A stretch of 64,000 bases of DNA. Source: a virus. Taxonomy: Duplodnaviria; Caudoviricetes. Below are positions 4,363-36,410 of the stretch, piece by piece. The notes under the pieces are model-generated. The model was given only the letters and a program-made list of their open reading frames with translations. It did no database searches and was not told where the DNA came from. Every line of letters starts with the position of its first letter. Position 1 is the stretch's first letter. The stretch lies in IMG/VR virus record IMGVR_UViG_3300035520_000885, positions 32,001 to 96,000 of that record, one strand, 5' to 3'. Made by a program: the position numbers and the translations under genes.

Positions 4363-4959
4363 TTACCGACTCATGCAGACGATTTCGCAAGCATGATCGG
4401 ACAGATAATCACTATTGCATCTCGGGTCCAAATTGATGATTTCGAACTTCCCTTTGTATTCACGGGCTAACTGGGTATAGGAACGATAGAAAGTATCGAA
4501 GTTGTCACGCATAGCGATGTACGCTCTGACTTGAGGATACTTCTTCGCAGCCTCCTGAAGTTTCGTCTCATTGTAGACGTCGACTTCTTCAGGGCAGCGA
4601 GCAGCTAACTTTTGAAGATACACTTTCTTAGACTGCCAGACAGGACGATACATCAGAACGGTTACTCCTTTATCCAGGAACCCACGAATGAGAGCTTCGT
4701 GAGAAGGAATCAGGAATACGAGCTTTCCGTTGTTTCCATTCTTTCCGGCTTCTTTCTTGAGTCCCAGAATCTTCTTCTGATATAACTCAACCCAGTTCTC
4801 TCTGTTTTTATCAGTTGAAAGAATCTCCTGTCTAAAGATACTGCTCTCGCAGTCAATGAACCGATTCATTGTCGGGTTAGGGACGCAGCCATACTGCTGC
4901 ACATCTGCAAGATAAGATTTACCAAGGCAAGGCCACACGGAAACGATTTTTGTGTTCAT
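4363..4959 (-). CDS. P-loop (nucleotide-kinase-like) protein
   Basis: Start MNTKIV at 4959 after GAAAGGA; N-terminal VSVWPCLGKS followed by IDCESS matches the phage FPxxGKS...DxDSS pattern. Confidence 0.55.
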   Translation of the reverse strand: MNTKIVSVWPCLGKSYLADVQQYGCVPNPTMNRFIDCESSIFRQEILSTDKNRENWVELYQKKILGLKKEAGKNGNNGKLVFLIPSHEALIRGFLDKGVTVLMYRPVWQSKKVYLQKLAARCPEEVDVYNETKLQEAAKKYPQVRAYIAMRDNFDTFYRSYTQLAREYKGKFEIINLDPRCNSDYLSDHACEIVCMSR

Positions 4960-5151
4960 AAATAATTCATTCCTTTCATATAGTATCTCAGAGATTATTT
5001 TTATGTGAGAATTCATATACTTTTTTATTACATATAAATCTCCAAAATGGGGGTAAAAATGACTTGTGTAGAAACACAAGTCATTTTACCAAATGAGGAG
5101 GAATACCATATAAAAGGAAAGGAGAAAAGAAAGGAAATGAAAAAAGAACGC

Positions 5152-5799
5152 TTACTTCTTATGGAACACGCCCATAACTTTGCTGGCAATCTTGGACAGA
5201 ACGCCGGACTTACTCTTCTTGGCGCGAGCTAAATACTCTTTCACCTTCCGAGTGGCAGGACCATTGTACTTCTTACGAAGCTTGGCCTTAAGAATACGTT
5301 CCATTTTATAGACGGTTTCCAGTTTACGCCACAGAGGATCCTTGTGCTCACGAGCGCAAGCAGCAACGGCAACCTCATACAGCTGAGCCTTCTTCGCATG
5401 TTTATCGAACTTGATAATCGTGCGCTCAGTCAGCAGACCCTCGGCTTCGAGAATCATGGCATCGGTGGACTCGGCAAACTCTTTAATCTCTTCGTCATCC
5501 ATCTCATCTGCAATCAGCAGAGGAGTGGCAATCGCATTCATCGCGTCATCAACGCGCTGGTCTTCCTCAGGAGGCAGTTCATCGACAACCTCAGGCGCAG
5601 GAGTCACAGGAGGGACAGCGGGAGCAGGCTCATCACCACCGGCGGGAACTTCAGGATTGTCAATGTCACCACACTCTTCAGCGGGGGTGTTGGTATCCTT
5701 AGGAAGATCGGTATCTTCAATCCCATCGTCGGTAGCTTCAAATTTACTATTGACAGTGGAGGGCAGAGGCTCCCCAAGCAGTTTCTCAAACATAGACAT
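5152..5799 (-). CDS. Hypothetical protein, probably virion-associated (acidic Pro-rich N-half, basic helical C-half)
   Basis: ATG at 5799 after AGAAAGGA; late-type promoter upstream at 5856-5867. Confidence 0.65.
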   Translation of the reverse strand: MSMFEKLLGEPLPSTVNSKFEATDDGIEDTDLPKDTNTPAEECGDIDNPEVPAGGDEPAPAVPPVTPAPEVVDELPPEEDQRVDDAMNAIATPLLIADEMDDEEIKEFAESTDAMILEAEGLLTERTIIKFDKHAKKAQLYEVAVAACAREHKDPLWRKLETVYKMERILKAKLRKKYNGPATRKVKEYLARAKKSKSGVLSKIASKVMGVFHKK

Positions 5800-20992: not shown

Positions 20993-21004
20993 AACATAAG
21001 TTTA
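20993..21004 (+). promoter_or_regulatory. Late-type promoter driving a non-coding unit
   Basis: AACA-TAAGTT-TA with no plus-strand ORF downstream. Confidence 0.6.
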
Positions 21005-23274: not shown

Positions 23275-25689
23275 TTAAATCAACATGTCATCCACGTCGA
23301 TTTGTTTAGACGAAATATTAGAGGTGTGGAATTTCTTCATACCCAGTCTCAGAAGAGTAGTAGCAATCTTACTACAACCGAGACCAATATTCTGACGGTC
23401 AGTCATGTAATTCATTTCTCCAGCACAGATATTGCAAATCTTGTCTGTAGTGCAGTACATGGGAGATCTCAAATTTACATGCTTTCCAACGTATCTATCA
23501 ATTACATCAGGGGTGAGAAGTTTGGGCTTCCCACCTTCCATAATATAACGATAGAAATAGGATCTCTTATTTTTTTCAGTGATTAAGATATCCAGAGTCT
23601 TCTTGCATTGGCAATCCGTCCCATGGTCATCAATCACTTCAGTCTGCATAGCAGCCAATAGCTGCTTTGCAAGATATCCTGATTCTTGAGTTCCGCATTA
23701 CTTGTATTCATAATAGGTCGTTACTCTATTATCGCTTTATTCAAGCTGCTCTATATTACTATAGAGAGTAGACTATATCATCACTATACATCCTGTTACC
23801 AGACATATAATGCCATGCGCTTCGATTTAATGGATTTACTATAGACTAATCTCATCTATACACCAACCCAATCACTTGGCTCTACTCTACTTACTTCCTC
23901 ATATAGGTGTTTCTCCTATACTATGCTTTCGATAGTCGTTGAACGTCGATTAGAAATCATAATCTTTTGAGATATCCTTTCTTCTTCTATGAGTACGGAT
24001 ATCCTTAACCAATTCTCGTTTAACCCCAAACAATGCAGCAATCTCTGGGTCTTTATACTTCTTTAACTCAAGCATCTTACAAATCCCATGAATAGTGGAT
24101 AATGGAATGGTATTAGGAATTGAATTTCCAAGCTTCGGAAATTTGTATCTGGATGTAATGTGCTTCCAGCACTCACCAGAACGAATGTGTTGTATCGTCT
24201 TTTTTCCAATACCAAGTTTTTTGGAAATCTCTCCATTATTCATTTTCTTCATAATGCATTCGCAGATTTCAATAGCTTCCTTCTCACTAATTTTAGCAAG
24301 ATGCGCATTCTCTCCACGAATACCATCACAAAGACCTTCTCTCCAGGCGTGCTCTGTATTTTCTTTTCCTGTCACCCACTCAAGATTGAAAGCCGCGTTA
24401 TGATGTTTATTCCCATCTTTATGATTAGGAACTAAATCATCGAAGCGCTTTCCATCTTTTTTATGTCGTTTCGGAATCTCACAGAAGTACATAGCAACTA
24501 ACCTATGAATACTGAATTCTTTCTTCTCACCATTTATCTTCACATACCCTCTATAGTATATGAGATTTTGGCCAGAGAAATCATTTATTGTTTTCTTCTT
24601 GGTATTTTTAAGACGACCATGATTCGATATCTGATACTGAGTTCTACTTCCATCATCATTTAGGATCCATTTCCAAACCTCTTTGTACTGACTAAGCATT
24701 GTATTATAGATAGCGTCAGGTTGCTTTGAATTGAAGATAATTTCAAGGTTAAAAGATGTTTTAGGCATTTTGCAATACACTCCCTAATATAAGATTTAGT
24801 ATAATGTACTGCAAACATTATTTTAATAATTTCTAATCTTTCGCTGCTGATTGTCGACACTTGTCGATGTTCCAGCAATTCACATGGTTTAAAGGCTGCC
24901 ACAACTCAAAACAGCCTTCGGGTAAGCGCCTGATACCACAGCAGTACCGAAACTTGGGATGTCTTCTTTACGAATACCATCCATAAAGGAAGACCTCACG
25001 ATTTCGTACTCACCGCGGTTATTCATGGTAGCACCCTTAAATAAATTCATATTCTTGTAGTTACCGAAGTTACCACGAGCTTCTGAATTATATAGATCCA
25101 TACCAGGATCGCCCTTAAGAATCTCTTTTGCATCTGCAACAAGCTTCTTCTCAATCTTTTCAGAAGTAACAATGTCACCTGCATTGAGTTCTTTATCATA
25201 CTTCTTAAATAGCTCTTCCTTTTCTTTCTGTACAGATGGAGGAGTTTTAATTGTATTCATGGTGAAAGAAGTGGTTATGACAGAATTGAGCTGCATTCCC
25301 AGATTATCACGGTAGTCGATATATCTGAAGAACTGGTCAATCGTCATTTTATCTTCAATCAGTGCTTGTGTAAGTTTTCCTTCCAACTTACCATTTACAC
25401 TCTTCGTAATGGGTTCATTGACATAGCCCAAGACTTTCTGCAAGCCAACTCTTTCTACAATGTACTTATTATAGATGAATCTTCCTACAGTAGTTTCAGT
25501 CTCTTTATCAACGAAGTATTCTTTTGGAGTTAATACCATAGTATCAGTGGTGTTGAATCTACTTTTCTTAGTAGATTTCATATCTGCACCAATCTGAGTA
25601 GTATCTCCAAAGAGTCCAACTAAAGTGGAGAAAGATAAGTCTTCCGGTTTCAGAGAAAGCAAGTACTTCTTTTCAGAATCACTAATCAT
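23275..25689 (-). CDS. RNA polymerase beta' C-terminal subunit (probably virion RNAP); exons 25689-24911 and 23695-23275, 399 aa
   Basis: Splicing gives the bridge helix AYPKAV-GTQESGYLAKQL; Zn-site DC...LRSPMYC...CNICAG; in a late-promoter operon. Confidence 0.88.
23696..24910 (-). mobile_element. Group I intron 3 (1215 nt) with HNH endonuclease
   Basis: P1 AAGGCTGT/GCAGCCTT with U.G; P10 TTGAGTT/AACTCAA; AATCAGCAGC, GTTCAACGACTA and GATATAGTCT core; terminal G at 23696; restores a GTC codon. Confidence 0.9.
23950..24768 (-). CDS. Intron-encoded NUMOD4-HNH homing endonuclease
   Basis: EVWKWI...YQISNHGRLKN (NUMOD4), IHRLVA, PNHKDGNKHHNAAFNLEWVTGKENTEHA; ATG at 24768 after GGGAG. Confidence 0.9.
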   Translation of the reverse strand: MPKTSFNLEIIFNSKQPDAIYNTMLSQYKEVWKWILNDDGSRTQYQISNHGRLKNTKKKTINDFSGQNLIYYRGYVKINGEKKEFSIHRLVAMYFCEIPKRHKKDGKRFDDLVPNHKDGNKHHNAAFNLEWVTGKENTEHAWREGLCDGIRGENAHLAKISEKEAIEICECIMKKMNNGEISKKLGIGKKTIQHIRSGECWKHITSRYKFPKLGNSIPNTIPLSTIHGICKMLELKKYKDPEIAALFGVKRELVKDIRTHRRRKDISKDYDF

Positions 25690-25691
25690 AA

Positions 25692-26420
25692 TTACGCCTC
25701 CTCATCCAATGTCTTCTTCAACATCAGACCTCTCGTAACGAGGTCTGAATTTAACCCCATACCAAGTAGATAAGTATCTACTGTATTAAGAGTCGTTTTG
25801 TTAGAAGGATCGGATTCCATATCATCGAGAGAAACGAATCCCTTATTAGAAATCGCAGTATACATCTGCTGCTTCATAACAGGGTCATCGGCACGGGGAC
25901 CATTCAACTCCTTCAGCACATTCTCCATACCAAGAGAAATCAGCATAGAATTCTCCAGGTCAGATTCACGGCCATTCTTATCTGCACCAGTAACCTGACC
26001 AGTAAGAGAAGCTCGACTATTAATAGAAGTAGAAAGTCCATTCTTCTTCGCTAGAGTCTGTTGCGTTCTCTTCACATGACAATAACCAACAGGAATCGGT
26101 TCCTTAGATACCACAACGTGGTCTTTGTCCATTGTATAGTGCGGGAATGCGACTTTCTCCATGAGAGGAATTTTTAGTACCTTGGCTGCTCTCTCGATAT
26201 CTTCAATTTTCAAATCAATCTCATAATCACAGATATTGAGAGGAAGATATGAGGTTTCGCTCTTAAATAACTGAGAGAAGAATCTGTCAAATTGACTATC
26301 TGTCATGCTATCGAACATGGCTTTGTAATGCTCTGTATTCCTATGGGTAGGATCGAGAGCATCGAAAGTCTTATAGACAAGATCCTCCATTTTTTGCCGT
26401 TTTTGCGGTGTAATCGCCAT
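25692..26420 (-). CDS. RNA polymerase beta extreme C-terminal fragment (probably virion RNAP small subunit)
   Basis: SLTGQVTG...GRESDLE...LKELNGPRADD...MY..I..KG parallels RpoB C-terminus SLxTQQP...GQRFGEME...LQExLTxKSDD; late promoter at 26453-26464. Confidence 0.75.
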   Translation of the reverse strand: MAITPQKRQKMEDLVYKTFDALDPTHRNTEHYKAMFDSMTDSQFDRFFSQLFKSETSYLPLNICDYEIDLKIEDIERAAKVLKIPLMEKVAFPHYTMDKDHVVVSKEPIPVGYCHVKRTQQTLAKKNGLSTSINSRASLTGQVTGADKNGRESDLENSMLISLGMENVLKELNGPRADDPVMKQQMYTAISNKGFVSLDDMESDPSNKTTLNTVDTYLLGMGLNSDLVTRGLMLKKTLDEEA

Positions 26421-26630
26421 AAACAGTGTTCCTCCTTTCTCAGTATAGAACTTAATATTTTGTTTCCTATAGGGATTTCTATGAAATCCGTAAATTGGCT
26501 CAAAAATGGTGATATAATATACGGATAGAAATGAGAGAAATAAAACTACAATACTCTCGTTTCTATGTTCCTGGAAATTCTGGGTTAGCAGGTATCCTTA
26601 AAACAAAAACTGCATATGAAAGGAGTTCAC

Positions 26631-27104
26631 ATGAAAGCCACTTTTACCGAGCTGAAGAACATGGCCGTGAATGGATGCGAGAATGAGTTCTTGAATACAG
26701 ACGGCATCGTCGGAGGCGTCAAGCAGGGCGTCGCCGCCGGCACCGGCATCATTGCTGGATGTGCTGTCTGGAAAGAGACTAAGTTCTCGGATGCCGGCTT
26801 GATCGCAGCCACCGGTGTTGGCGTGGGCACCTATCGTGCCACCTCCATCGGTATCGACCTGGTAGGCAACCTCGCCAAGAACCTGGCTCTTAAAGCCAAG
26901 CTCAATGGGGTTACGCCGAGCGCCGCCTTTGAAGCGGTAAAATCGAAGATTCCCCATAAAGAATCTTCCGAAACGGTTGCCGCTGAGCCCGTGGCCACTG
27001 AGCCGGCCTCGACCTTTGATCCCAATGTGGCTGAAGATGCCACGTTCATCATTAGCGACGACCCGGTACCTGAAACTGACGCCGATGACGGCGACAACAT
27101 CTGA
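26631..27104 (+). CDS. Gly/Ala-rich membrane-hairpin protein with acidic tail
   Basis: GAAAGGAG SD; GxxxG-rich hydrophobic segments; GC-rich codons. Confidence 0.7.
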   Translation: MKATFTELKNMAVNGCENEFLNTDGIVGGVKQGVAAGTGIIAGCAVWKETKFSDAGLIAATGVGVGTYRATSIGIDLVGNLAKNLALKAKLNGVTPSAAFEAVKSKIPHKESSETVAAEPVATEPASTFDPNVAEDATFIISDDPVPETDADDGDNI

Positions 27105-27119
27105 GAGGAGGAGAAAGCC

Positions 27120-27263
27120 ATGTTAATCAGAATGGGAAGCTATCAGAAGAGCGGGGGCTTGAATAAGCTCCTGGGCAGGTCTTCCAAAAAAATTAAGAAA
27201 GCCGCCAATAAGCGGCGTAAGGCTGGTGGATTTGTATTCACCGGCCTGAAGGGAGGTAAGTGA
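27120..27263 (+). CDS. 47-aa cationic peptide (not in the ORF track)
   Basis: GAGGAGGAG SD; MLIRMGSYQKSGGLNKLLGRSSKKIKKAANKRRKAGGFVFTGLKGGK; fills the gap between neighbouring genes. Confidence 0.65.
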   Translation: MLIRMGSYQKSGGLNKLLGRSSKKIKKAANKRRKAGGFVFTGLKGGK

Positions 27264-27264
27264 T

Positions 27265-27522
27265 ATGGGAGTCAAGAAAGGCCTCGTAGGGATCGGCAAT
27301 ATTATCAACGGCACTGCCGTGTTGGCGGCGTCCGGAGCGACCGGCATCGTAACCGCCGCGTACGTCATCGACAATCCGGTGCTCGATGACTTTAACTCCA
27401 ATACCGGATTGGCCATCGGTGCTGGCGCTGTTGCTGGCGCCGGCACCAGTACTATGATTCTCGGAGTTGAGAATCTGGTGTTGAAAGGCATGAAAAAGAT
27501 TAAGGAGGTGGCGGAAGGATGA
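27265..27522 (+). CDS. Gly/Ala-rich small membrane protein
   Basis: GGGAGG SD; two glycine-zipper helices; resembles 26631-27104. Confidence 0.7.
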   Translation: MGVKKGLVGIGNIINGTAVLAASGATGIVTAAYVIDNPVLDDFNSNTGLAIGAGAVAGAGTSTMILGVENLVLKGMKKIKEVAEG

Positions 27523-27845
27523 ACGCCCAAGCCAGTTTCGAAAACGGGATTGCGACCGGTTCCGCTCTTGCGGTTGGCGTTGGTGGAGCCCTAATGTTGG
27601 CCCCTGCAACTGCCTGTCTGGCCGCCGCAGGCATCACGCTAATCGGCGTGAAGACTTTCTGCCGGATGTCCAACGTTACGGCAGAAGTCAGACACCTTCA
27701 GAAGAAGGTGAAGACCAAGAAGATATTAAAAACCGTCGAAGAGCTCACCGGCGAGGCTGAGGCTCAGATGACGGCTGAGAATATGGCCGCGACTGCTGCG
27801 GCTACAATGGGATCCGTGTTACCGAATATTCCGGATCCCGAATGA
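27519..27845 (+). CDS. Gly/Ala-rich membrane protein with basic coiled segment
   Basis: AGGAGG SD, ATGA overlap; hydrophobic N-half. Confidence 0.7.
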   Translation: MNAQASFENGIATGSALAVGVGGALMLAPATACLAAAGITLIGVKTFCRMSNVTAEVRHLQKKVKTKKILKTVEELTGEAEAQMTAENMAATAAATMGSVLPNIPDPE

Positions 27846-28052
27846 CGCCCGTACGGGCTGGGATGCAGTAAGCCTGCATGTGAAGGCCGAGCTGCTCATT
27901 AACTCACTCTTAATGAGACACCATCAGACGGCTGAGGCACAAACTAATAACTTGGTTGGCCGACCGAGGACTTAGCTGAGCTGGGTATACTCTACATCCC
28001 AGATTTCACATACCCCTCACTTATCTCTGTATAAGTGAGGGGTTCTTTTTTT
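27846..28052 (+). ncRNA. Candidate structured 3' RNA element ending in an intrinsic terminator (28013-28052)
   Basis: Closing stem CTGGGATG/CATCCCAG, inner stems CTCATTAA/TTAATGAG, GCTGAG/CTTAGC, CTTGGTT/GACCGAG; terminator ACCCCTCACTTAT/ATAAGTGAGGGGT plus U-run. Confidence 0.45.
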
Positions 28053-28096: not shown

Positions 28097-28594
28097 ATGA
28101 GCGTGCCTATTAAACTTTTGCTTTTGAATAAAGGGGAGACTCTTGGTTACGGCTTAAGAGCTATCCGTGAGTATGCTGATAGAATGATTGATGTGTCTGA
28201 TTGGGAACTCGGTATTTCTGACTCTACCATGTCTTCTGCCAAGCAGTATGTCATCAAAGACAATGTCATGTACATGTGCATGAAGTCTTTTTTTGATCTG
28301 GATAATAACGAGAGAATTTTCGTTTGTGTGGAGAATACTGAGCCATATGATGTTCTCCCTGAAGAGGAGACCGTCACGACTGCAGTACCCAATCCGGATA
28401 ATAATCCTGTAGTTGCCGTGGATACCTCTGAGAAGACTTTAAGTGCAACTCTGACTGAGCTTGAAGAGAGCGACGAGCCCACGATTCTTGTTATGCCGGA
28501 CGAATCCATTGATGAAGAGGTCACGGTTAAGACCTCCACCACGTTCGCTGGTTCTAATGCCGAGAAGGCACAGAATCGTAATCAGAGTATCTAA
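28097..28594 (+). CDS. Hypothetical protein
   Basis: AAAGGAAG SD; GACA-N6-TA variant promoter at 28060-28071. Confidence 0.7.
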   Translation: MSVPIKLLLLNKGETLGYGLRAIREYADRMIDVSDWELGISDSTMSSAKQYVIKDNVMYMCMKSFFDLDNNERIFVCVENTEPYDVLPEEETVTTAVPNPDNNPVVAVDTSEKTLSATLTELEESDEPTILVMPDESIDEEVTVKTSTTFAGSNAEKAQNRNQSI

Positions 28595-28651
28595 TTTTTT
28601 CTTTGGAACACAGAAAATAGAGAGTAGGATTTTTATCCTACTCTCTATTTT

Positions 28652-29887
28652 TTAGCAGTATTTCTGAATACACATGACAAAATACAAGAAGATTCCCTTG
28701 GTATAATCAATCCGGGTTGCCAATCTTCCATATTTTCCGTATATGCCTGTATCTGTACCCCACTTATCCAATTTCTTCTTGATATTGGAAATATTGGTGT
28801 TTTTGCTATTGGATTTCTTGAATAACGCCAGAGCAAAAGCAATGAATGCTTTACTATTGATTTCCTCAAAAGTGTGCTTCTCATCATACAAATAGATGAA
28901 AAGAATGGATTCCACGAAAGACTTCATATCATCACTATTCTTCTCTACGGTAATCTGAGTAATAGCATTTCTCAATTCAATCTTGGATACTCCCGATGCA
29001 TTGGAAGCAAAGTCACAGATTTTCAAATCTACTCCATTGATGAGTATATTCAAGACAATCTTATTTGTGACTGACTCCACTCTATTGGTATCATTCTCTG
29101 TATCTACTACGATTGCATCGTCGTAAGCATCTACAGAAGTATTGACACGGAGATTCAACTTCTTGTTTTCCATATAGGCATTTTTGATTTTTTTCATTAG
29201 AGAGTTCTGGTCATTCCGAATTCTCTGAATGAAAGCAATCACGTTCGAGTCTGCACCATTGATGATGTTCTTCTCATGGAATCTCCAAGAGTTTTGAATA
29301 GACGTCGTAAGGGTATTGAAAATCGTACCGGCTTTCTTGATGATAAATCTCTGGGAGAGATTATCAATCGTGTATTTCATGACCGCAGGGTCTGGTTGGA
29401 AACCAGAATAATACTTATCCCAAATGGAAGGATAGTAAGCCATAGCAGTAATAGCCAGAGCAGAATTCAAACCCTTATTATCTTTCTTAATGGTATAGAA
29501 ACGAATGATGAAAAAAAGAAGCGTATATACTGGGTTATTCTTAATGAAAAGCCAATTGGCTTTCTCATTGACTTTCTTAAGAACTCCAGAGATTATCTCA
29601 ATGGTATCCTTTTCAGTCATTCCAAATAATCCAAATAACTTACCTTTGTCATCATAGGTGAACGGAATCATATATAGAGGACCAATTGCTGCTAGTTTAC
29701 TACTATTTCGATTGAAGTAATCTTCAACGATTCTCATAAACTTACGATTTCCCTCCGGTGTCTTCAAAACTTCCTCGATCTTTGGATATAAAGCATCCCG
29801 CAATTCATATGTATTAGCGGGAGCAGCTTCGAAAAAAATATCAAAAGGATCGTTGTCTATATTTGCATTTTCGTAAAAAATATACAT
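28652..29887 (-). CDS. Hypothetical protein, probably late/virion
   Basis: 411 aa; AGGAGG SD; AACA-N6-TA at 29917-29928. Confidence 0.75.
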   Translation of the reverse strand: MYIFYENANIDNDPFDIFFEAAPANTYELRDALYPKIEEVLKTPEGNRKFMRIVEDYFNRNSSKLAAIGPLYMIPFTYDDKGKLFGLFGMTEKDTIEIISGVLKKVNEKANWLFIKNNPVYTLLFFIIRFYTIKKDNKGLNSALAITAMAYYPSIWDKYYSGFQPDPAVMKYTIDNLSQRFIIKKAGTIFNTLTTSIQNSWRFHEKNIINGADSNVIAFIQRIRNDQNSLMKKIKNAYMENKKLNLRVNTSVDAYDDAIVVDTENDTNRVESVTNKIVLNILINGVDLKICDFASNASGVSKIELRNAITQITVEKNSDDMKSFVESILFIYLYDEKHTFEEINSKAFIAFALALFKKSNSKNTNISNIKKKLDKWGTDTGIYGKYGRLATRIDYTKGIFLYFVMCIQKYC

Positions 29888-30061
29888 CCGAATCCCTCCT
29901 ATTCCTTAATTATGCTTAATACACTGTTTTTAAGGGTGCTAAAAAATGAATTTTGAGTTGTATGATATATTTGTGTAATCATAATAATGCTGGATTAGGC
30001 ATTGGTGGTTACGTGTGTTGTCTACCCAAAATGTGCATGTGGAAAGGAGATTGATGAATGA

Positions 30062-30895
30062 ATGTGCACCATAATTCAGCAAACTGAGGGGCGGCAAAAG
30101 TATTGCAGAGGTCAGGTCTGGTTCATGAGAGAACCGGTAGATATGACCAATGCGAAGATGGTAAGCGGTGATGGAACAACTGCTTATAATCGTCCAGTTC
30201 TCATTCTCAGCGTGAATGAGGACAATAGGGATTGCCGTACCGTAACGGTAGTTCCTCTGAGCACTTCCCTGTCGCATGTCGATGGTGGCGATGTCCTGTT
30301 CATGACGAATGGGAAAACTATCAAAGCCATGTCCTGGCAGATTACTGCTAAGGACAAGAAGTTCCTTACGGAGTACATGTATTCGGTGGATGCCGAAGTT
30401 ATGGATTCCGTGGAGGCCAAGGTCGCTGCTCATCTAGGATTTGGTCGGAACTATGACTCCGAACTCGTGCAGAAAATAAACGCTTTGCACGAAAAGGTTG
30501 ATTATCTTCTCAGTGAGGATAAATCGACTGGTGAGAAATATCACTCAAAGAGTATCGTAGACAATCCGAATGTCTCGGTGTCTGTGGATACCAGTACTCC
30601 TGAGCCTTATAAGGAAGCCCACGAGGAGGACAGGATCACCAAGTCCGAAGCTCTTGAAAAGATTACCAGAAGGAGGATGACGAAAGAGGAAGGAAAAGCA
30701 TTCGTAGATGACTATACTTCCATGTCTATGGCTGATATGAAAGCCAAGTATGGGAGTAGTGAGGGAGCTATCCGTCAGAAGTATCGCTACTGGTCGGAAA
30801 AGCTCGACCTCAAACCCCAACACAGTGCCCCCCCCCCCCTTCAGAGGGAACGTCCAGCTCTAGTAGGAGCAAGGATTCCATTACCGCTTTCATAG
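30062..30895 (+). CDS. MazF/PemK-like domain protein with C-terminal HTH-like region
   Basis: RGQVWF...NRPVLILS...VTVVPLST...WQITAKDK..L (PemK fold); MADMKAKYGSSEGAIRQK is HTH-like. Confidence 0.75.
   Translation: MCTIIQQTEGRQKYCRGQVWFMREPVDMTNAKMVSGDGTTAYNRPVLILSVNEDNRDCRTVTVVPLSTSLSHVDGGDVLFMTNGKTIKAMSWQITAKDKKFLTEYMYSVDAEVMDSVEAKVAAHLGFGRNYDSELVQKINALHEKVDYLLSEDKSTGEKYHSKSIVDNPNVSVSVDTSTPEPYKEAHEEDRITKSEALEKITRRRMTKEEGKAFVDDYTSMSMADMKAKYGSSEGAIRQKYRYWSEKLDLKPQHSAPPPLQRERPALVGARIPLPLS
30828..30839 (+). repeat. C12 homopolymer at a frameshift point
   Basis: 12 consecutive C in an AT-rich genome; C13 or C10 fuses the gene to the frame ending at 31110. Confidence 0.85.
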
Positions 30896-31110
30896 ATAGC
30901 GTGTGTATTTTCGGGGAGAAAGAAGTTTCTTTCTTCGCAGATGTATATAGAGAATACTATAAATTCTGCACGAAGGAAAATATGGTTCCTCGGTCCCGCC
31001 AAGCATTGGAACATCGTCTATCTAAAAAATCCAATGTGTCGACAAATCGAATTTGTAGGTCAGGAGGTCACCCTGAACTGAAAATTACAGGATTGGGCAT
31101 GAAGCCTTAA
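30841..31110 (+). other. Out-of-frame winged-helix module (D5/P4-primase C-terminal type), likely the true C-terminus of the 30062 gene
   Basis: DSITAFIDSVC...DVYREYYKFC...PRSRQALEHRL...ITGLGMK; frame is open from the C tract; no SD for the GTG at 30901. Confidence 0.6.
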
Positions 31111-31158
31111 TCAAAAAATACAAATAAGAAGAGACGGAGAGAAATCTCCGTCTCTTCT

Positions 31159-32664
31159 TCATAATCGCCATATCTGAATGGCTTTACATTTTTTCTTCAA
31201 GTGGCTGACTCTAGTCTTATATTGTCTTTCACAAGTAGAGAAAGCGATATCCACTAAATCAAAGAAGTAGGTATCTTTGTCTTTTGCATACTCTCTCAGT
31301 CTTCCGGGTAGCTGATTGCATACGATTGGAGAACTGAAAGGCTCCAAATTTATGATACAACGAAGACCTGGTATATCTACTCCAGTACCACAGGATCTTA
31401 TGGTACTACAGATAATATCCGCACTCTTCGCCTCTTCGTTTACCTCTTTGGTATTAGAAGAATTGATAGTAACGATTTTTTTACCTTGTCCTCTGCAATG
31501 CTCAGATATGAGACTCTGAATAAATTCAGTATCTGCAATCTTTGGCACTGTGACAAGAATCTTTCCCTCTAGCTCAGAAGCCTTATCAAAGACAATGAAG
31601 AAATTCTCTATCTGAGTTTGGTCACGGTCATCGTGTAATGCATACCTTGAAAAATTCAAGACAGAGAAACCATAAGAATTCATTGTGGAAGCAATCTGGG
31701 TGTCAGTCGGATTGCTTCTATACAGCACTGGAACATAGATAATATGCTTTCTTTTTTCTTCTGTCTCCGTAGGTTCATTCCCATATTTAACAACAGATGA
31801 GAAGCACTTCTTGAAAAGTTTCGCTTCTTTACTGTCGCTTCTTTCAAAGTTTGCAGTCAGATAGAATGTCTTTTTCGTATTGGCAAACATGTCTACCCGT
31901 AAGACATTCTTAAATGACAGATGGGCCTCATCGAAAACTTTCACCCCAACATGGAGTTTTTCAAAGAACTTCTTAACTGCTGGCCACCCATGTGTTCTCG
32001 CATAGCTAGTGAGAGTCTGATGATTGACAAAGTAAATATGACCAGCGACCTGCTTTCCTTTCATGATACGCTCGACTACGTCAGTGCCAGATATATTGAC
32101 AATACTCTTAGCTGGGACGTTAGTCATCTTCAGCAACGTATTGATCCACTGCTCTTTAATCTTATCTTGATGTGTGATGATGATAGCTTTCATTCTAAGA
32201 TTCAGTATCGCGCTGATTGTAGAATATGTCTTCCCATCACCAGTATCAAGAATAAGAGCTTGTTGGTGAGCACTATCTAGAAATTTAAATTTCCCAGTAT
32301 TGGATAAGAAAGAAATGCTGTCAACTTGAAGCTGATTCCTAGGCGGAGATAACATCTCCCACTTTGGAAGTCGAGAGCTCTTTATCTCACTCTCATATTT
32401 TATAAAAGCCCTAGAGTTCATCTGTGTCTCTAAGAGCTTCACGTTATAACCCCTTGGCACATAAAGTCTATCATCACAAATATAGTATCCCATAGGGTCA
32501 TATCTGTATTCTGCGTCTATCCAGATGGAAAGAGCTTTTTCGAGATTTTTACACTCTCCAAGCTCATATGGATAAACTTCATAATGTGTATTCATTATGC
32601 TAACTTCTTTTTCCTCTTTCGGCGGCTCGTAATATAACGAGCTGAAAAATGGCGTATTCGGCAT
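31159..32664 (-). CDS. SF2 DNA/RNA helicase (UvsW/ResIII-like)
   Basis: LDTGDGKT, VFDEAH, LTAN, GTGVDIPGL, QLPGRLR. Confidence 0.88.
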   Translation of the reverse strand: MPNTPFFSSLYYEPPKEEKEVSIMNTHYEVYPYELGECKNLEKALSIWIDAEYRYDPMGYYICDDRLYVPRGYNVKLLETQMNSRAFIKYESEIKSSRLPKWEMLSPPRNQLQVDSISFLSNTGKFKFLDSAHQQALILDTGDGKTYSTISAILNLRMKAIIITHQDKIKEQWINTLLKMTNVPAKSIVNISGTDVVERIMKGKQVAGHIYFVNHQTLTSYARTHGWPAVKKFFEKLHVGVKVFDEAHLSFKNVLRVDMFANTKKTFYLTANFERSDSKEAKLFKKCFSSVVKYGNEPTETEEKRKHIIYVPVLYRSNPTDTQIASTMNSYGFSVLNFSRYALHDDRDQTQIENFFIVFDKASELEGKILVTVPKIADTEFIQSLISEHCRGQGKKIVTINSSNTKEVNEEAKSADIICSTIRSCGTGVDIPGLRCIINLEPFSSPIVCNQLPGRLREYAKDKDTYFFDLVDIAFSTCERQYKTRVSHLKKKCKAIQIWRL

Positions 32665-32764
32665 GATTACATTCCTCCTTTCACCACTAAAAAAATGTTT
32701 TTTAATGGATAAAGCTTTATTTGGTTAGGAAGGAGACTGGATATAGAATCCAGTCTCCCATTAG

Positions 32765-33436
32765 TTAGTCTTCAGACGCAACGAAATCTACTAACTTTTC
32801 TAGCATAGAATCTGCTGAATTACTTTGGAATACTTTCAGTTTCTCCATAAATTCGGGACTTCCGATTTTAGGATAGTCTGTAAATTCATCTGGCTTGTGA
32901 GTAAGAGTGCTATACGGATATATCCGGTTAGACCATGGATGTTCCTTTATGTACCCAAGGTGCTCAATATCTCGATATGTATTGTCGATTGCCCTATCTA
33001 CAAGCGTCACGAGTTTCTTTTTTCTAAAGAATTTAATATAGAGAGAAATCCCATAATCTTCAAAGAGATGACGTTTCTTAGATACATGGAGCTTCATGAA
33101 GTCAACTAAGTACCCCATAATGTAATTCATAAGGAATTCATAAATGGAAATAAACATAGCCAGACATTCATCCCTATCTAAATCTTTGAGCTGGTCTATC
33201 TCATCTATCATGGTATCGTCACGTGCAGAGTGAAGACCAATAGCATGGAACTTCTTGTACATCTCATCGTGAATAGTATCATAAAGGTCTTTTCCAATAT
33301 ACTCGGCAAGCCCATCTACTTCTACGCCAAGATCCACAATTGCATTATTCAAAACCCAATTGATTAGAATACGTCTGACAACAGCCAGAGATACGATGAC
33401 TACTACTGCTATTGCCGCGTAACCTTTAGCATCCAT
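32765..33436 (-). CDS. Membrane-anchored hypothetical protein (paralog of 33426-34097)
   Basis: N-terminal TM helix; shared KDLD, EDY..S and RAI.N...DIE motifs. Confidence 0.7.
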   Translation of the reverse strand: MDAKGYAAIAVVVIVSLAVVRRILINWVLNNAIVDLGVEVDGLAEYIGKDLYDTIHDEMYKKFHAIGLHSARDDTMIDEIDQLKDLDRDECLAMFISIYEFLMNYIMGYLVDFMKLHVSKKRHLFEDYGISLYIKFFRKKKLVTLVDRAIDNTYRDIEHLGYIKEHPWSNRIYPYSTLTHKPDEFTDYPKIGSPEFMEKLKVFQSNSADSMLEKLVDFVASED

Positions 33437-34097
33437 CTTTTTCAAGTTCCTTCTTTCGTATTTCTTTTGCAAAGTCCAGAATCTCAACAAGTCGTTTTCT
33501 ATCAATGATTTGAATCTGATTCTTCACGGTATCCATCGTCCATCCTTGAAGCATATAGGGATTGAACGTCAGATATTCTTTGCTCTCATTATAATTACCG
33601 TTATTCCGACAAATTTCAATATCAGAGAAATTATTCGTGATAGCTCTAACAAGAATCCTATTACGTCTCACACGATTTCTCCACACGAATGCGCTAGAAA
33701 ATGCATAATCCTCAATGTGCATGATTCGTCTTTCAGAATTTGCAGATGAAAGCATCATTGGTAGTTGAGAAGTCAGATAGAATAGTACGAATTGATAGGT
33801 GGAGAGATAGATAGCATCCCATTCTCTTCTATAGAGAGTTTTGTAATCCAAGTCCTTCGGGTCTTTCCATTCGGAATTATCAATACATGCCTCTCGCTCC
33901 CCATAGTTACTCTTCATGATGAAATCCAAATCGGTTAAAATATAGCCAGATGCTTCATCCAACATTGCAGAGCAGAACTCGATATTGTCATGGCAGATTT
34001 TATTCGTCTCGATGAATCTACCAACAATGGCGGAAATGATATAAAGACCAACCACTGTTGCGATGACCAATATCAATTGACCAAGAGTTAAATTCAT
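33426..34097 (-). CDS. Membrane-anchored hypothetical protein
   Basis: ATG at 34097 after GGAAAGGAAG; N-terminal TM helix. Confidence 0.7.
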   Translation of the reverse strand: MNLTLGQLILVIATVVGLYIISAIVGRFIETNKICHDNIEFCSAMLDEASGYILTDLDFIMKSNYGEREACIDNSEWKDPKDLDYKTLYRREWDAIYLSTYQFVLFYLTSQLPMMLSSANSERRIMHIEDYAFSSAFVWRNRVRRNRILVRAITNNFSDIEICRNNGNYNESKEYLTFNPYMLQGWTMDTVKNQIQIIDRKRLVEILDFAKEIRKKELEKDGC

Positions 34098-34161
34098 AAA
34101 ATCGCTTCCTTTCCAATATAAATAAAGGGTCGTATACATCTCCGTATACGACCCTTTATTC

Positions 34162-36240
34162 TTACCAGTTTTTATTCTTCTTTTTCTTCTCGACGCTCTT
34201 ATGCATCTCAATGAGACGAGAAGTTGGAGTCGTCTTTCTGAAGAAAGAGTCGATATAAGATTGTCCATGTTTCTTCGTAACCAAGTCATCAGACATAAGC
34301 TGTTTCTTGATATTCTGAGAAGCAAGACCAATCAGAGGAGATGCGTTAAACTCCAGAGCTTTCAGAATCGTATAAATCTGATAGTCGGGGACTTCATCTT
34401 CCGTAAAATCGGGACGACTGAAGTCCTCGTCAGGGTCATTGCGAAGCATACGATTGATAATCAGCTCACCAGAGAGTGCCATAGCTCCAATTCCAGACTC
34501 CAGAAGAAGCTCAGTGAAAGTCTGAGCCATCCAGTGATAAGTAACCTTCTCATCACTATCCTTCTTGGAAGTATTGAGAAGGTCCATCAGACGATACAGA
34601 GGACGAGTCAACTCATTATTCATGATGACCAGTTCAAACAGCGCAGTATCTTCATCCATGTCCTTGAAACGGATATATCCACGACCCTTTTTCATCAGGT
34701 CGATACATTCATCAGTCATAAACATCTCACGCTCGTCCATAGTATGGATCTCAACGAGCTCCTTTGTGACCATATTGTAGACATAGAATTTACCACTGAT
34801 GTAAGTATTGAACGAAGAATCGTCATCCAGCTCATCAGACTTCTGGATAGTATTCGGGTCAATCCAAACAGCCCAGTTATCGAGGTCTGTCACCTCGTTG
34901 TTATTGAGAATCGGATTGATTTCGCCAGCAGTCATAGAGAAGAACCGATAGAAATCAGGATTGAACTCAATTTTTTCAGAAATGGTAGTCAGAAGATGCT
35001 TTGTAGAAAGAACCATCTGGTTTACAACCTTAGTGGTTTCTTCAGTTTCGAATCCAGAGACACCATCTGCGATATCCAAGTTCAAAAGAGAAGTAGTACC
35101 AAAGCATTTATGACAAACTTCATCTCCGCATGCACAAGTGATAGGAGAACGAAGATAAATCTTCTTTCCTACCAGCTTTCCTTTATCCCTCTTAGCATTG
35201 ATGAGAGAGAGGTCGTCGTTCAGATTGAGCTTATAGTAACGACCATTGTACTTCTTGAGCATTTTCTCAGACTTGATTTCAATCTCAAGAAGATGCTTAG
35301 TATTGCAATCAGATACAGTCTTAGAAAGCCGAAGAGTTCTTGCCAGTAACAGGCAGATTTTTCCGAAATATCCGGCTTTCCCCATCACTTTTTTATTTGT
35401 GATTAGACTCTTTCTGGCGCCGAGCGCATCAATATACATGGCACTGGGTTTATTCAAACCATTAACCATGGTGCTGCTATTGATAGGAACTGGAATTGTG
35501 ACACCATTCAGGTCAGGTTTCAAGCCCTGGTTGATAGTGAACTCACTAAGCTGCTTGTGCTTAATACCAGTCCCGGAACGCAGAATTACACCGACTGCAT
35601 TGTCCTTGATTCCTTTGAAGATTTCGATTTCTTCATTCATGAGACCATTGAGCTCATGCTCAATCTCGGCCGGTTGCATTTCCAATGGGAAAGTTGTTTG
35701 CATGATTTGTTGCATTCTCGGATTTTCCTGATAAACTTTCAAAAAAGTCTCAGACGATACCGTCAGGCCCATAATCAATGCAAAGTCAATAGAGATTCTT
35801 CTCATATTGTAGAGGACTTCAGATACAGAGCGGTTTCGTACTGTGTTTCTGATACTATACTCTTCAAGGACCAGAATGACCTTGTCGTTGATATAGTCTG
35901 TGAAATTGGGAATATCATTTTCACAATCTACAATAAAAGAAGAATCAAGGATTTTCGTTCCATATAAATTGATGAAGGGATACCATGCAAACACGTTCAC
36001 TACGAAGTGACGCAGTTGTAAAGTATGGGTTTCTTCATCGGTCGCATAGAACTTGAATCGTACAGGATACTCTCTGCAAGCTTTATGCTCGAAGCATCCT
36101 TTAATGAGGGTATAAATTTTCTCCTGAAAATCTACATAGTCTTCTTCGCTCCTCATATAATCATTGATGATATAGAGAGGGCTCACGTACTTGCTCAATT
36201 CTTCAGGAGTACTAAATGCTTTTACAACGTAATCTTTCAT
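34162..36240 (-). CDS. Non-virion RNA polymerase beta' C-terminal subunit
   Basis: GLKPDL, ARKSL...KAGYFGK (bridge helix), DCNT...LRSPITC...VCHKCFG (Zn), QMVLSTKH (trigger loop); ATG at 36240 after GAGGAGGAG; early-type motif upstream. Confidence 0.88.
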   Translation of the reverse strand: MKDYVVKAFSTPEELSKYVSPLYIINDYMRSEEDYVDFQEKIYTLIKGCFEHKACREYPVRFKFYATDEETHTLQLRHFVVNVFAWYPFINLYGTKILDSSFIVDCENDIPNFTDYINDKVILVLEEYSIRNTVRNRSVSEVLYNMRRISIDFALIMGLTVSSETFLKVYQENPRMQQIMQTTFPLEMQPAEIEHELNGLMNEEIEIFKGIKDNAVGVILRSGTGIKHKQLSEFTINQGLKPDLNGVTIPVPINSSTMVNGLNKPSAMYIDALGARKSLITNKKVMGKAGYFGKICLLLARTLRLSKTVSDCNTKHLLEIEIKSEKMLKKYNGRYYKLNLNDDLSLINAKRDKGKLVGKKIYLRSPITCACGDEVCHKCFGTTSLLNLDIADGVSGFETEETTKVVNQMVLSTKHLLTTISEKIEFNPDFYRFFSMTAGEINPILNNNEVTDLDNWAVWIDPNTIQKSDELDDDSSFNTYISGKFYVYNMVTKELVEIHTMDEREMFMTDECIDLMKKGRGYIRFKDMDEDTALFELVIMNNELTRPLYRLMDLLNTSKKDSDEKVTYHWMAQTFTELLLESGIGAMALSGELIINRMLRNDPDEDFSRPDFTEDEVPDYQIYTILKALEFNASPLIGLASQNIKKQLMSDDLVTKKHGQSYIDSFFRKTTPTSRLIEMHKSVEKKKKNKNW

Positions 36241-36410
36241 AACTAGCTCCTCCTCATTGCCCAAACATAGGGTTTGCTTAATTTAGATGTCCACAGGATT
36301 ATTAATTTTGACTTCTGAGGTTATAATATATAGCTTACCCAAATTTTTAGGCCATCTTTTAAAATGGACAGACAATCTTTTAAAGTATACCTCAGAAAGG
36401 CGGTGAGAGA

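Follow-up and report, generated by a model that had tools for sequence, protein, structure and literature searches.

Hypermutable polyG tracts are known to diversify proteins of Campylobacter phages (Sorensen et al. 2021, Cell Rep 35:109214, cited in PMC12823448). Reportedly, these tracts lie in receptor-binding or structural genes, their variation was demonstrated by sequencing, and they recur across related phages. Among bacteria, simple-sequence contingency loci have been described in Neisseria, Haemophilus, Campylobacter and Bordetella (PMC11868660, PMC2831843), where the classical examples switch surface or restriction-modification genes on or off in cells. A further class of systems, which comprises dnaX (tau/gamma), Shigella mxiE and the phage tail chaperones G/GT, obtains two C-termini from one gene when the frame shifts on a homopolymer or other slippery sequence; these programmed slippage sites are rich in A/T, are conserved among relatives and are often accompanied by stimulators. 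Here, we analyse an uninterrupted run of 12 cytosines (C12) within a 64,000-nucleotide (nt) stretch of phage DNA, hereafter the window, which spans positions 32,001 to 96,000 of the 114,127-bp IMG/VR virus contig IMGVR_UViG_3300035520_000885. The run lies near the 3' end of a gene, hereafter ORF1, encoding a MazF-linker-helix-turn-helix (HTH) protein, and is followed in the -1 frame by a segment encoding a Pox_D5-type winged helix. We propose, with about even confidence, that it constitutes a hypermutable junction that toggles unfused and fused isoforms.

As in the Campylobacter phages, a long G/C homopolymer resides in a phage coding gene, and a change in its length shifts the frame and would generate variants in one population. 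The tract of the window, in contrast, sits in an intracellular MazF-type gene, would toggle a domain fusion rather than on/off expression, and occurs once; its variation is predicted. The likeness to bacterial contingency loci lies in an uninterrupted coding homopolymer above the genome background, at which a one-base change alters the product; here, however, the C-terminal domain of a phage protein would be switched. With dnaX, mxiE and G/GT, the locus shares the principle of one gene with two C-termini, but the run is C12, was found in one genome, and had no detectable stimulator. Homopolymer switching itself is thus known, and the new elements are the intracellular gene class, the domain fusion as the outcome, and the signs of a recently captured gene.

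The C12 tract and its reading frames

The tract occupies positions 30828–30839 on the plus strand and is read in frame 0 as (A)PPP(L). It starts 8 codons beyond the HTH that the family conserves, at the place where homologs end, and lies in a region modelled as disordered by AlphaFold2 (AF2), at the natural C-terminus of the family. Across all 114,127 bp of the contig, it is the sole run of C or G with at least 7 nt; a single G6 comes next in length, and no other C run reaches 6 nt. The number of C12 or G12 runs expected from contig composition is about 0.001. Runs of A or T with at least 8 nt were absent from the contig, against roughly ten expected by composition; homopolymers are thus avoided genome-wide, and the C12 therefore stands out further. 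As a long, uninterrupted coding homopolymer that is an outlier for its genome, it resembles a contingency locus in this respect.

As written, with C12, ORF1 extends over 30062–30895 (+), ends at the TAG at 30893–30895, and encodes a protein of 277 amino acids (aa) with a non-conserved tail. It is preceded by a Shine-Dalgarno (SD) sequence, AGGAG at 30045–30049 (+), 12 nt before the ATG at 30062. This ATG is considered the real start because the conserved RGQVW motif (residues 16–20) precedes M22, at which the public database gene call begins (P0002, 256 aa), cutting the first beta-strand of the MazF domain. Rebuilding the locus in silico with altered tract lengths gave products of 348 aa for C10, 266 aa for C11, 277 aa for C12, 349 aa for C13 and 267 aa for C14, so that a one-unit change in length alters the product and C11, C12 and C13 would make up a clean three-state switch. 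An earlier note on this DNA, made from the sequence alone, had described the tract at this position with a 277-aa product and a short tail, and a fusion of about 349 aa upon C13 or C10; both descriptions hold, the tail amounting to 18 aa after the prolines.

The extension arises from the -1 frame (+2), which is open from 30763 to the TAA at 31108–31110, as had been claimed for the interval from the tract onwards. Taken from the tract, this open reading frame (ORF; P0001, 30829–31110, +) comprises 93 aa plus the stop and contains a S/T/G-rich linker, followed by the winged-helix domain. A codon model derived from the long ORFs of this phage gave the -1 frame 0.038 per codon, more than any of the other five frames and more than any off-frame window of real genes. 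The value lay below those of 99% of the in-frame windows from the phage's long genes. The frame-0 tail 3' of the tract scored -0.43, like non-coding sequence. Judged by these scores, the -1 frame is the coding one past the tract and is foreign-looking or recent.

A coding-like -1 frame next to a non-coding-like tail is also what speaks for a miscalled tract, whose true length would be C13 (or C10), so that a constitutive 349-aa MazF-HTH-winged-helix fusion would be made and the frameshift would be an assembly or consensus error. Runs of 12 C or G are error-prone on every platform, the locus comes from one metagenome-assembled contig of which no second copy was found in the contig scans, and the stretch between tract and domain resembles a natural interdomain linker in its S/T/G-richness. 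Elsewhere in the contig, however, ORFs are long and intact and nothing points to systematic homopolymer error, and the fused architecture occurs in none of the 125 homologs described below. Even a C13 consensus, moreover, would be hypermutable and give rise to the short form at high frequency. We consider a miscall rather unlikely; if it occurred, an unusual but ordinary three-domain phage protein would remain. Chimeric assembly at the tract was also considered and rejected: the two flanks adjoin each other in related phages as well, and assembly k-mers are much longer than a run of 12 nt.

The run also contains C CCC CCC, which formally fits the slippery heptamer X XXY YYZ of programmed -1 frameshifting. 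Such recoding combines the heptamer with a stimulator, and we did not file the locus under this category because no stimulator was found and the slip site is not conserved in the relatives.

The MazF-linker-HTH family and its conserved locus

A HMMER search of 1.84 billion representative proteins retrieved 125 homologs of ORF1 with 20–35% identity, most of which have 220–270 aa and align to ORF1 residues from about 12 to 250. The phage family to which ORF1 belongs has proteins of about 240–260 aa. Most end 0–10 residues past the last HTH helix, that is, around the point from which the 8 codons to the tract are counted. The Pox_D5 domain was found in none of the 125 homologs by phmmer or BLASTP with P0001 and in none of the 119 subjected to a Pfam scan, and the longer members likewise lack it. 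For six homologs, the gene could be placed on its contig. The contigs L004/L005 (P0005) and L011 (P0008) show the same order as the window, with a 411-aa gene (-), the MazF-HTH gene (+) and a convergent helicase-type gene (-), and in L002 (P0003) and L009 (P0009) the plus-strand MazF-HTH gene likewise converges with a minus-strand gene. Only 36–65 nt separate the MazF-HTH stop from the convergent gene in the five syntenic relatives (L002, L004/L005, L009 and L011), which leaves no room for a winged helix, and in L002, L004 and L011 this gap contains a hairpin terminator. The earlier note had named homologs that are always fused without a tract as a finding that would refute its reading; the survey came out opposite, with 0 of 125 fused and the five syntenic relatives ending at the tract site. 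The short form is therefore taken as ancestral and the fusion as lineage-specific. On this comparison of sequences, tract and winged-helix segment, the latter of roughly 270 nt, are identified as lineage-specific additions between the conserved gene end and its terminator. In L003 (P0004), an extra 257-aa ORF (4642–5415, +) without a Pfam match is found between the MazF-HTH gene and the convergent helicase, which suggests an insertion hotspot at this place in the clade.

Searches for closer relatives were negative. Neither blastn nor tblastn of the locus, ORF1, P0005 and P0001 against 50,697 phage records gave a match, related-locus searches of viral contigs with ORF1 and with its 411-aa neighbour found nothing, and a word-indexed protein search returned only the window's own protein for ORF1 and none for P0001.

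The MazF/PemK endoribonuclease-fold domain of ORF1 is encoded by 30095–30436 (+) and covers residues from about 12 to 125. The MazF/PemK and HTH calls of the earlier note were borne out, the former by Pfam, AF2 and Foldseek and the latter by AF2 and a family motif. ORF1 matches PemK_toxin (PF02452) with 38.8 bits against a cut-off of 23.1 (E 1.2e-9), as do 113 of the 119 homologs, and it also matches PHROG 1936 ("MazF-like growth inhibitor"). An AF2 model built on 119 homologs, with a mean predicted local distance difference test (pLDDT) score of 84.6, comprises a barrel at residues 12–125 (pLDDT >95), a long helix at 133–156, a disordered acidic linker at 157–207, a three-helix bundle at 208–247 (pLDDT 91–97), and a low-confidence tail from about residue 250. 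Foldseek superposed the barrel onto S. aureus, B. subtilis and B. cereus MazF structures, including 4mzp, 1ne8 and 4mdx, with template modelling (TM) scores of 0.82–0.85, root-mean-square deviations (rmsd) of 2.0–2.5 Å and E 8e-9, and the family profile matched MazF chains of the Protein Data Bank (PDB) with E 3.8e-26. The predicted structure thus identifies the N-terminal domain as a true MazF fold.

Within this domain, R44-P45 aligns with the "RPv" of MazF, and the arginine is conserved in at least 90% of the family; we take R44 to be the catalytic arginine of B. subtilis and S. aureus MazF, with R25/T48 as the presumed numbering of the catalytic pair in B. subtilis MazF. The column of the catalytic threonine holds T in the family consensus, and ORF1 has S67 followed by T68 at this position. 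ORF1 accordingly resembles the MazF/PemK toxins (S. aureus MazF, 4mzm/4of1; B. subtilis MazF/EndoA, 4mdx/1ne8) in its fold, profile match and RP-motif arginine, but differs from them by the lack of a MazE-type antitoxin gene, by an extra helix in the beta1-beta2 region, and by the C-terminal linker and HTH. An active RNase is favoured over the decoy for host MazEF that the earlier note had considered because the catalytic arginine is conserved, and, as predicted from sequence, ORF1 is probably an active, sequence-specific endoribonuclease tethered by its HTH.

The three-helix HTH itself (30683–30802, +; residues 208–247) is of the sigma-70 region 4/homeodomain-like type and carries the conserved motif W-T...F..DY...KYG in the family alignment. 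Homolog P0011 matches Sigma70_r4_2, GerE and HTH_71, and two homologs match Sigma70_r4 models. Structural look-alikes of the bundle in the ESM Atlas, with scores that serve as leads only, are small phage and transposase HTH proteins.

In agreement with the earlier claim that no antitoxin gene is adjacent, ORF1 is flanked upstream by the divergent 411-aa gene and downstream by the convergent helicase gene. The adjacent, co-transcribed antitoxin of type II toxin-antitoxin (TA) systems is thus missing, as it is in L002, L004, L009 and L011. Unlike a mobile TA cassette, ORF1 is a conserved phage gene in fixed synteny, and the loci compared place it in an antitoxin-less MazF-linker-HTH family conserved in a clade of AR9-like jumbo phages. 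A literature search for MazF-like proteins in jumbo phages yielded a sole match, which concerned a host TA gene.

The winged-helix segment and the proposed isoform switch

The core of the -1 frame product (30871–31038, +) matches Pox_D5 (PF03288) with 22.9–23.4 bits, marginally above the cut-off of 21.4, and residues 15–70 of P0001 correspond to positions 3–59 of the 86 of the model. Further matches of P0001 fall at the very C-terminal ends of eight PHROG profiles for primases, helicases or polymerase-primases, as well as at positions 256–301 of the 304 of TIGR01613 (primase_Cterm). These matches uphold the D5/P4-type pattern previously noted in this frame. Among its ESM Atlas neighbours, 25 of 30 fall in clusters of stand-alone Pox_D5 proteins of 83–103 aa, from phages and bacteria, with scores of 0.95–0.97. 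The segment therefore resembles both the C-terminus of P4-alpha-type primases and stand-alone Pox_D5 proteins; the Pox_D5 domain of primase-helicases occupies their C-terminus, but this segment has no primase or helicase joined to it and sits out of frame behind the MazF-HTH gene. There was no PDB sequence match for P0001 and no close relative of it in any collection searched. A split-off piece of the phage's own primase was considered as its source and appears less likely, as no other Pox_D5 or P0001-like sequence is present in the 114 kb of the contig, which is about 47% complete.

According to the earlier note, this frame had no SD of its own, which did not hold: an AGGAG at 30865–30869 (+) sits 10 nt before an in-frame ATT at 30880–30882. 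The ATT corresponds to residue 18 of P0001, and the profile alignments (Pfam model position 3 at residue 15; phrog_34460 position 17 at residue 33) would place a stand-alone N-terminus at about residue 17. The AGGAG-to-start spacing of the phage peaks at 8–10 nt and interior AGGAG occurs 1.24 times per kb, and the chance of such a placement is roughly 0.01–0.03. The element may represent a fossil or weak ribosome-binding site, and the winged helix was probably once a separate small Pox_D5 gene with its own ribosome-binding site, in which ATT now stands in the place expected for ATG. The domain is not preceded by a canonical start codon: GTG 30901, the first of them, comes 5 nt past the ORF1 stop and already falls within the domain.

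The same element underlies the alternative of two separate genes, in which a winged helix of about 76 aa would be translated from AGGAG-N10-ATT or by reinitiation past the ORF1 stop, with the C12 as a junction scar in a dispensable ORF1 tail. The stand-alone character of the nearest ESM Atlas clusters, the AGGAG at the phage-preferred spacing from an ATT where such proteins would start, and the overlap of the ORF1 stop with this start region, with the GTG following closely, all fit such an arrangement, and the extra ORF of L003 indicates that insertions are tolerated at the site. ATT is nonetheless a very poor start, with an efficiency of about 1% or less of that of ATG, and a product initiated at GTG 30901 would lack the first domain helix. 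Furthermore, a neutral, uninterrupted C12 would not be expected to persist where other G/C runs do not exceed 6 nt. Two separate genes are thus an unlikely explanation in our assessment.

As a further alternative, the segment could be what is left of a captured gene in decay: its ATG would be lost, nothing functional would be made from it, and the tract beside it would be incidental. This would account for the atypical codon usage (below 99% of in-frame windows), for the lack of a canonical start, and for the segment having relatives in none of the searched collections. It is hard to reconcile with a stop-free frame of 94 codons at 40% GC, for which the chance is roughly 0.003 if unconstrained, with a Pox_D5 domain that is complete and above the Pfam cut-off, and with a score that is still coding and better than that of every off-frame window. 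We regard a remnant as very improbable.

The preferred explanation, a hypermutable junction, would start with a small independent Pox_D5-type gene that landed, in the lineage of the window phage, between the MazF-HTH gene and the shared terminator. Slipped-strand mispairing would readily occur at the C12 during replication, and RNA polymerase, or ribosomes on the consecutive CCC proline codons, might slip there as well. Since G/C runs of such length change length at high frequency in replication, a real tract would mean that every phage population of some size has to contain both forms. The population would then be a mixture, in which C12 and C11 lead to the ancestral-type short protein and C13 and C10 to the MazF-HTH-winged-helix fusion. 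Three routes could express the winged helix, namely fusion through a +1 or -2 change of the tract, weak initiation at the ATT, and reinitiation at the GTG. Fusion is favoured as the main route because a C12 is hard to explain as neutral in a homopolymer-avoiding genome and because of the clean three-state layout, and we hold this preference evenly balanced between right and wrong. Through the fusion, the protein would gain a second DNA-binding module, of the origin-binding type, which might alter where or on what the nuclease acts. The short form would be the normal product of the family, for which a lytic jumbo phage would not need an antitoxin gene. We infer the variation in tract length, the making and use of both isoforms, and their roles from this arrangement. 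More tentatively, the tract may act as a bet-hedging poly-C in an intracellular host-takeover or anti-defence gene, with bursts that would mix free and DNA-tethered nuclease and a captured, ATG-less gene that would be expressed via the tract.

Several observations weigh against such a switch. The locus is known from a single metagenomic contig, and the tract length may be off by one. Exact-flank scans, with a tract of 6–20 nt allowed, returned 0 matches in viral contigs and 0 in metagenome contigs, and the RNA contigs of the only public run found with the phage stop short of 30828–30839. A G/C run of at least 7 nt was found in none of the relative loci examined, so the tract is not shared and conservation cannot argue for selection. 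At the level of translation, the fold of 30800–30960 revealed no frameshift-stimulating RNA structure (z -1.13 versus shuffles), no SD is present within 30 nt upstream of the tract, and AGGAG-N10-ATT permits independent, if weak, expression of the winged helix. Finally, the single-sequence AF2 model of P0001 had a pLDDT of 52 and helices only, which is too poor for a fold search.

If the tract varies, phage contingency loci would extend past host-recognition genes to an intracellular nuclease/regulator, and, if the proposed history is true, the locus would provide a snapshot of the birth of a domain fusion through gene insertion, start codon loss and a slippery junction. In AR9-like jumbo phages of the gut, the MazF-linker-HTH family neighbours the genes for the helicase and RNA polymerase; it is uncharacterised and a candidate mRNA-cleaving takeover factor.

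Gene neighbourhood and source phage

The divergent upstream neighbour of ORF1 (28652–29887, -), with 411 aa, belongs to phrog_2921, of unknown function. The convergent downstream neighbour (31159–32664, -) was assigned from Pfam and PHROG matches as a superfamily 2 (SF2) helicase of 501 aa, the best named relatives of which are from Bacillus phages AR9 and PBS1 and from Staphylococcus jumbo phages, with about 29–30% identity over 95% of the length. A predicted 15-bp hairpin terminator at 31126–31159, common to ORF1 and the convergent helicase gene, is the sole terminator and follows the winged-helix stop; none is found between that stop and the stop of ORF1.

The AR9-type late promoter motif AACA-N6-TA is strongly depleted in the window, with 21 occurrences against 39.7 +/- 5.9 expected, and 100 of 100 shuffles had at least 21. 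It is still found about 25–30 nt before the ATGs of the 411-aa gene (29917–29928, -) and of the helicase gene (32688–32699, -); a further example is located at 20993–21004 (+). The region upstream of ORF1 has neither this motif nor a sigma-70-like site, and, in view of the missing AACA-N6-TA, ORF1 may belong to a different temporal class. The AR9 early-promoter consensus was not enriched in the window, with 40 matches versus 38 expected.

The contig has a CheckV completeness of 47%, which implies a genome of roughly 240 kb. PHROG matches near the locus include split multisubunit RNA polymerase beta subunits at 24889–26420 and 34162–36264, a SbcC-like nuclease and the SF2 helicase, and the gene content identifies the source as an AR9-like jumbo phage. 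The order of the RNA polymerase beta-type subunit (34162–36264, -), hypothetical genes (32765–34331, -) and the SF2 helicase (31159–32664, -) mirrors AR9 g154–g156; after the helicase, AR9 has NrnB and an exonuclease, and the window phage has the convergent MazF-HTH gene.

One public run with near-identical pieces, a gut metatranscriptome library from 2025, was found to contain 0.08 of the sampled words. Its contigs match 28255–28994, 30547–30687 and 31729–31917 with at least 99% identity, which places the window phage, or a near-identical one, in that gut sample. A portion of ORF1 is thereby present in an RNA library, where DNA carry-over is possible, so that its presence is no proof of transcription. 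Elsewhere in the window, the stretch 26000–28000 has a GC fraction of 0.49, versus about 0.40 in the remainder, and contains small, Gly/Ala-rich hydrophobic ORFs.

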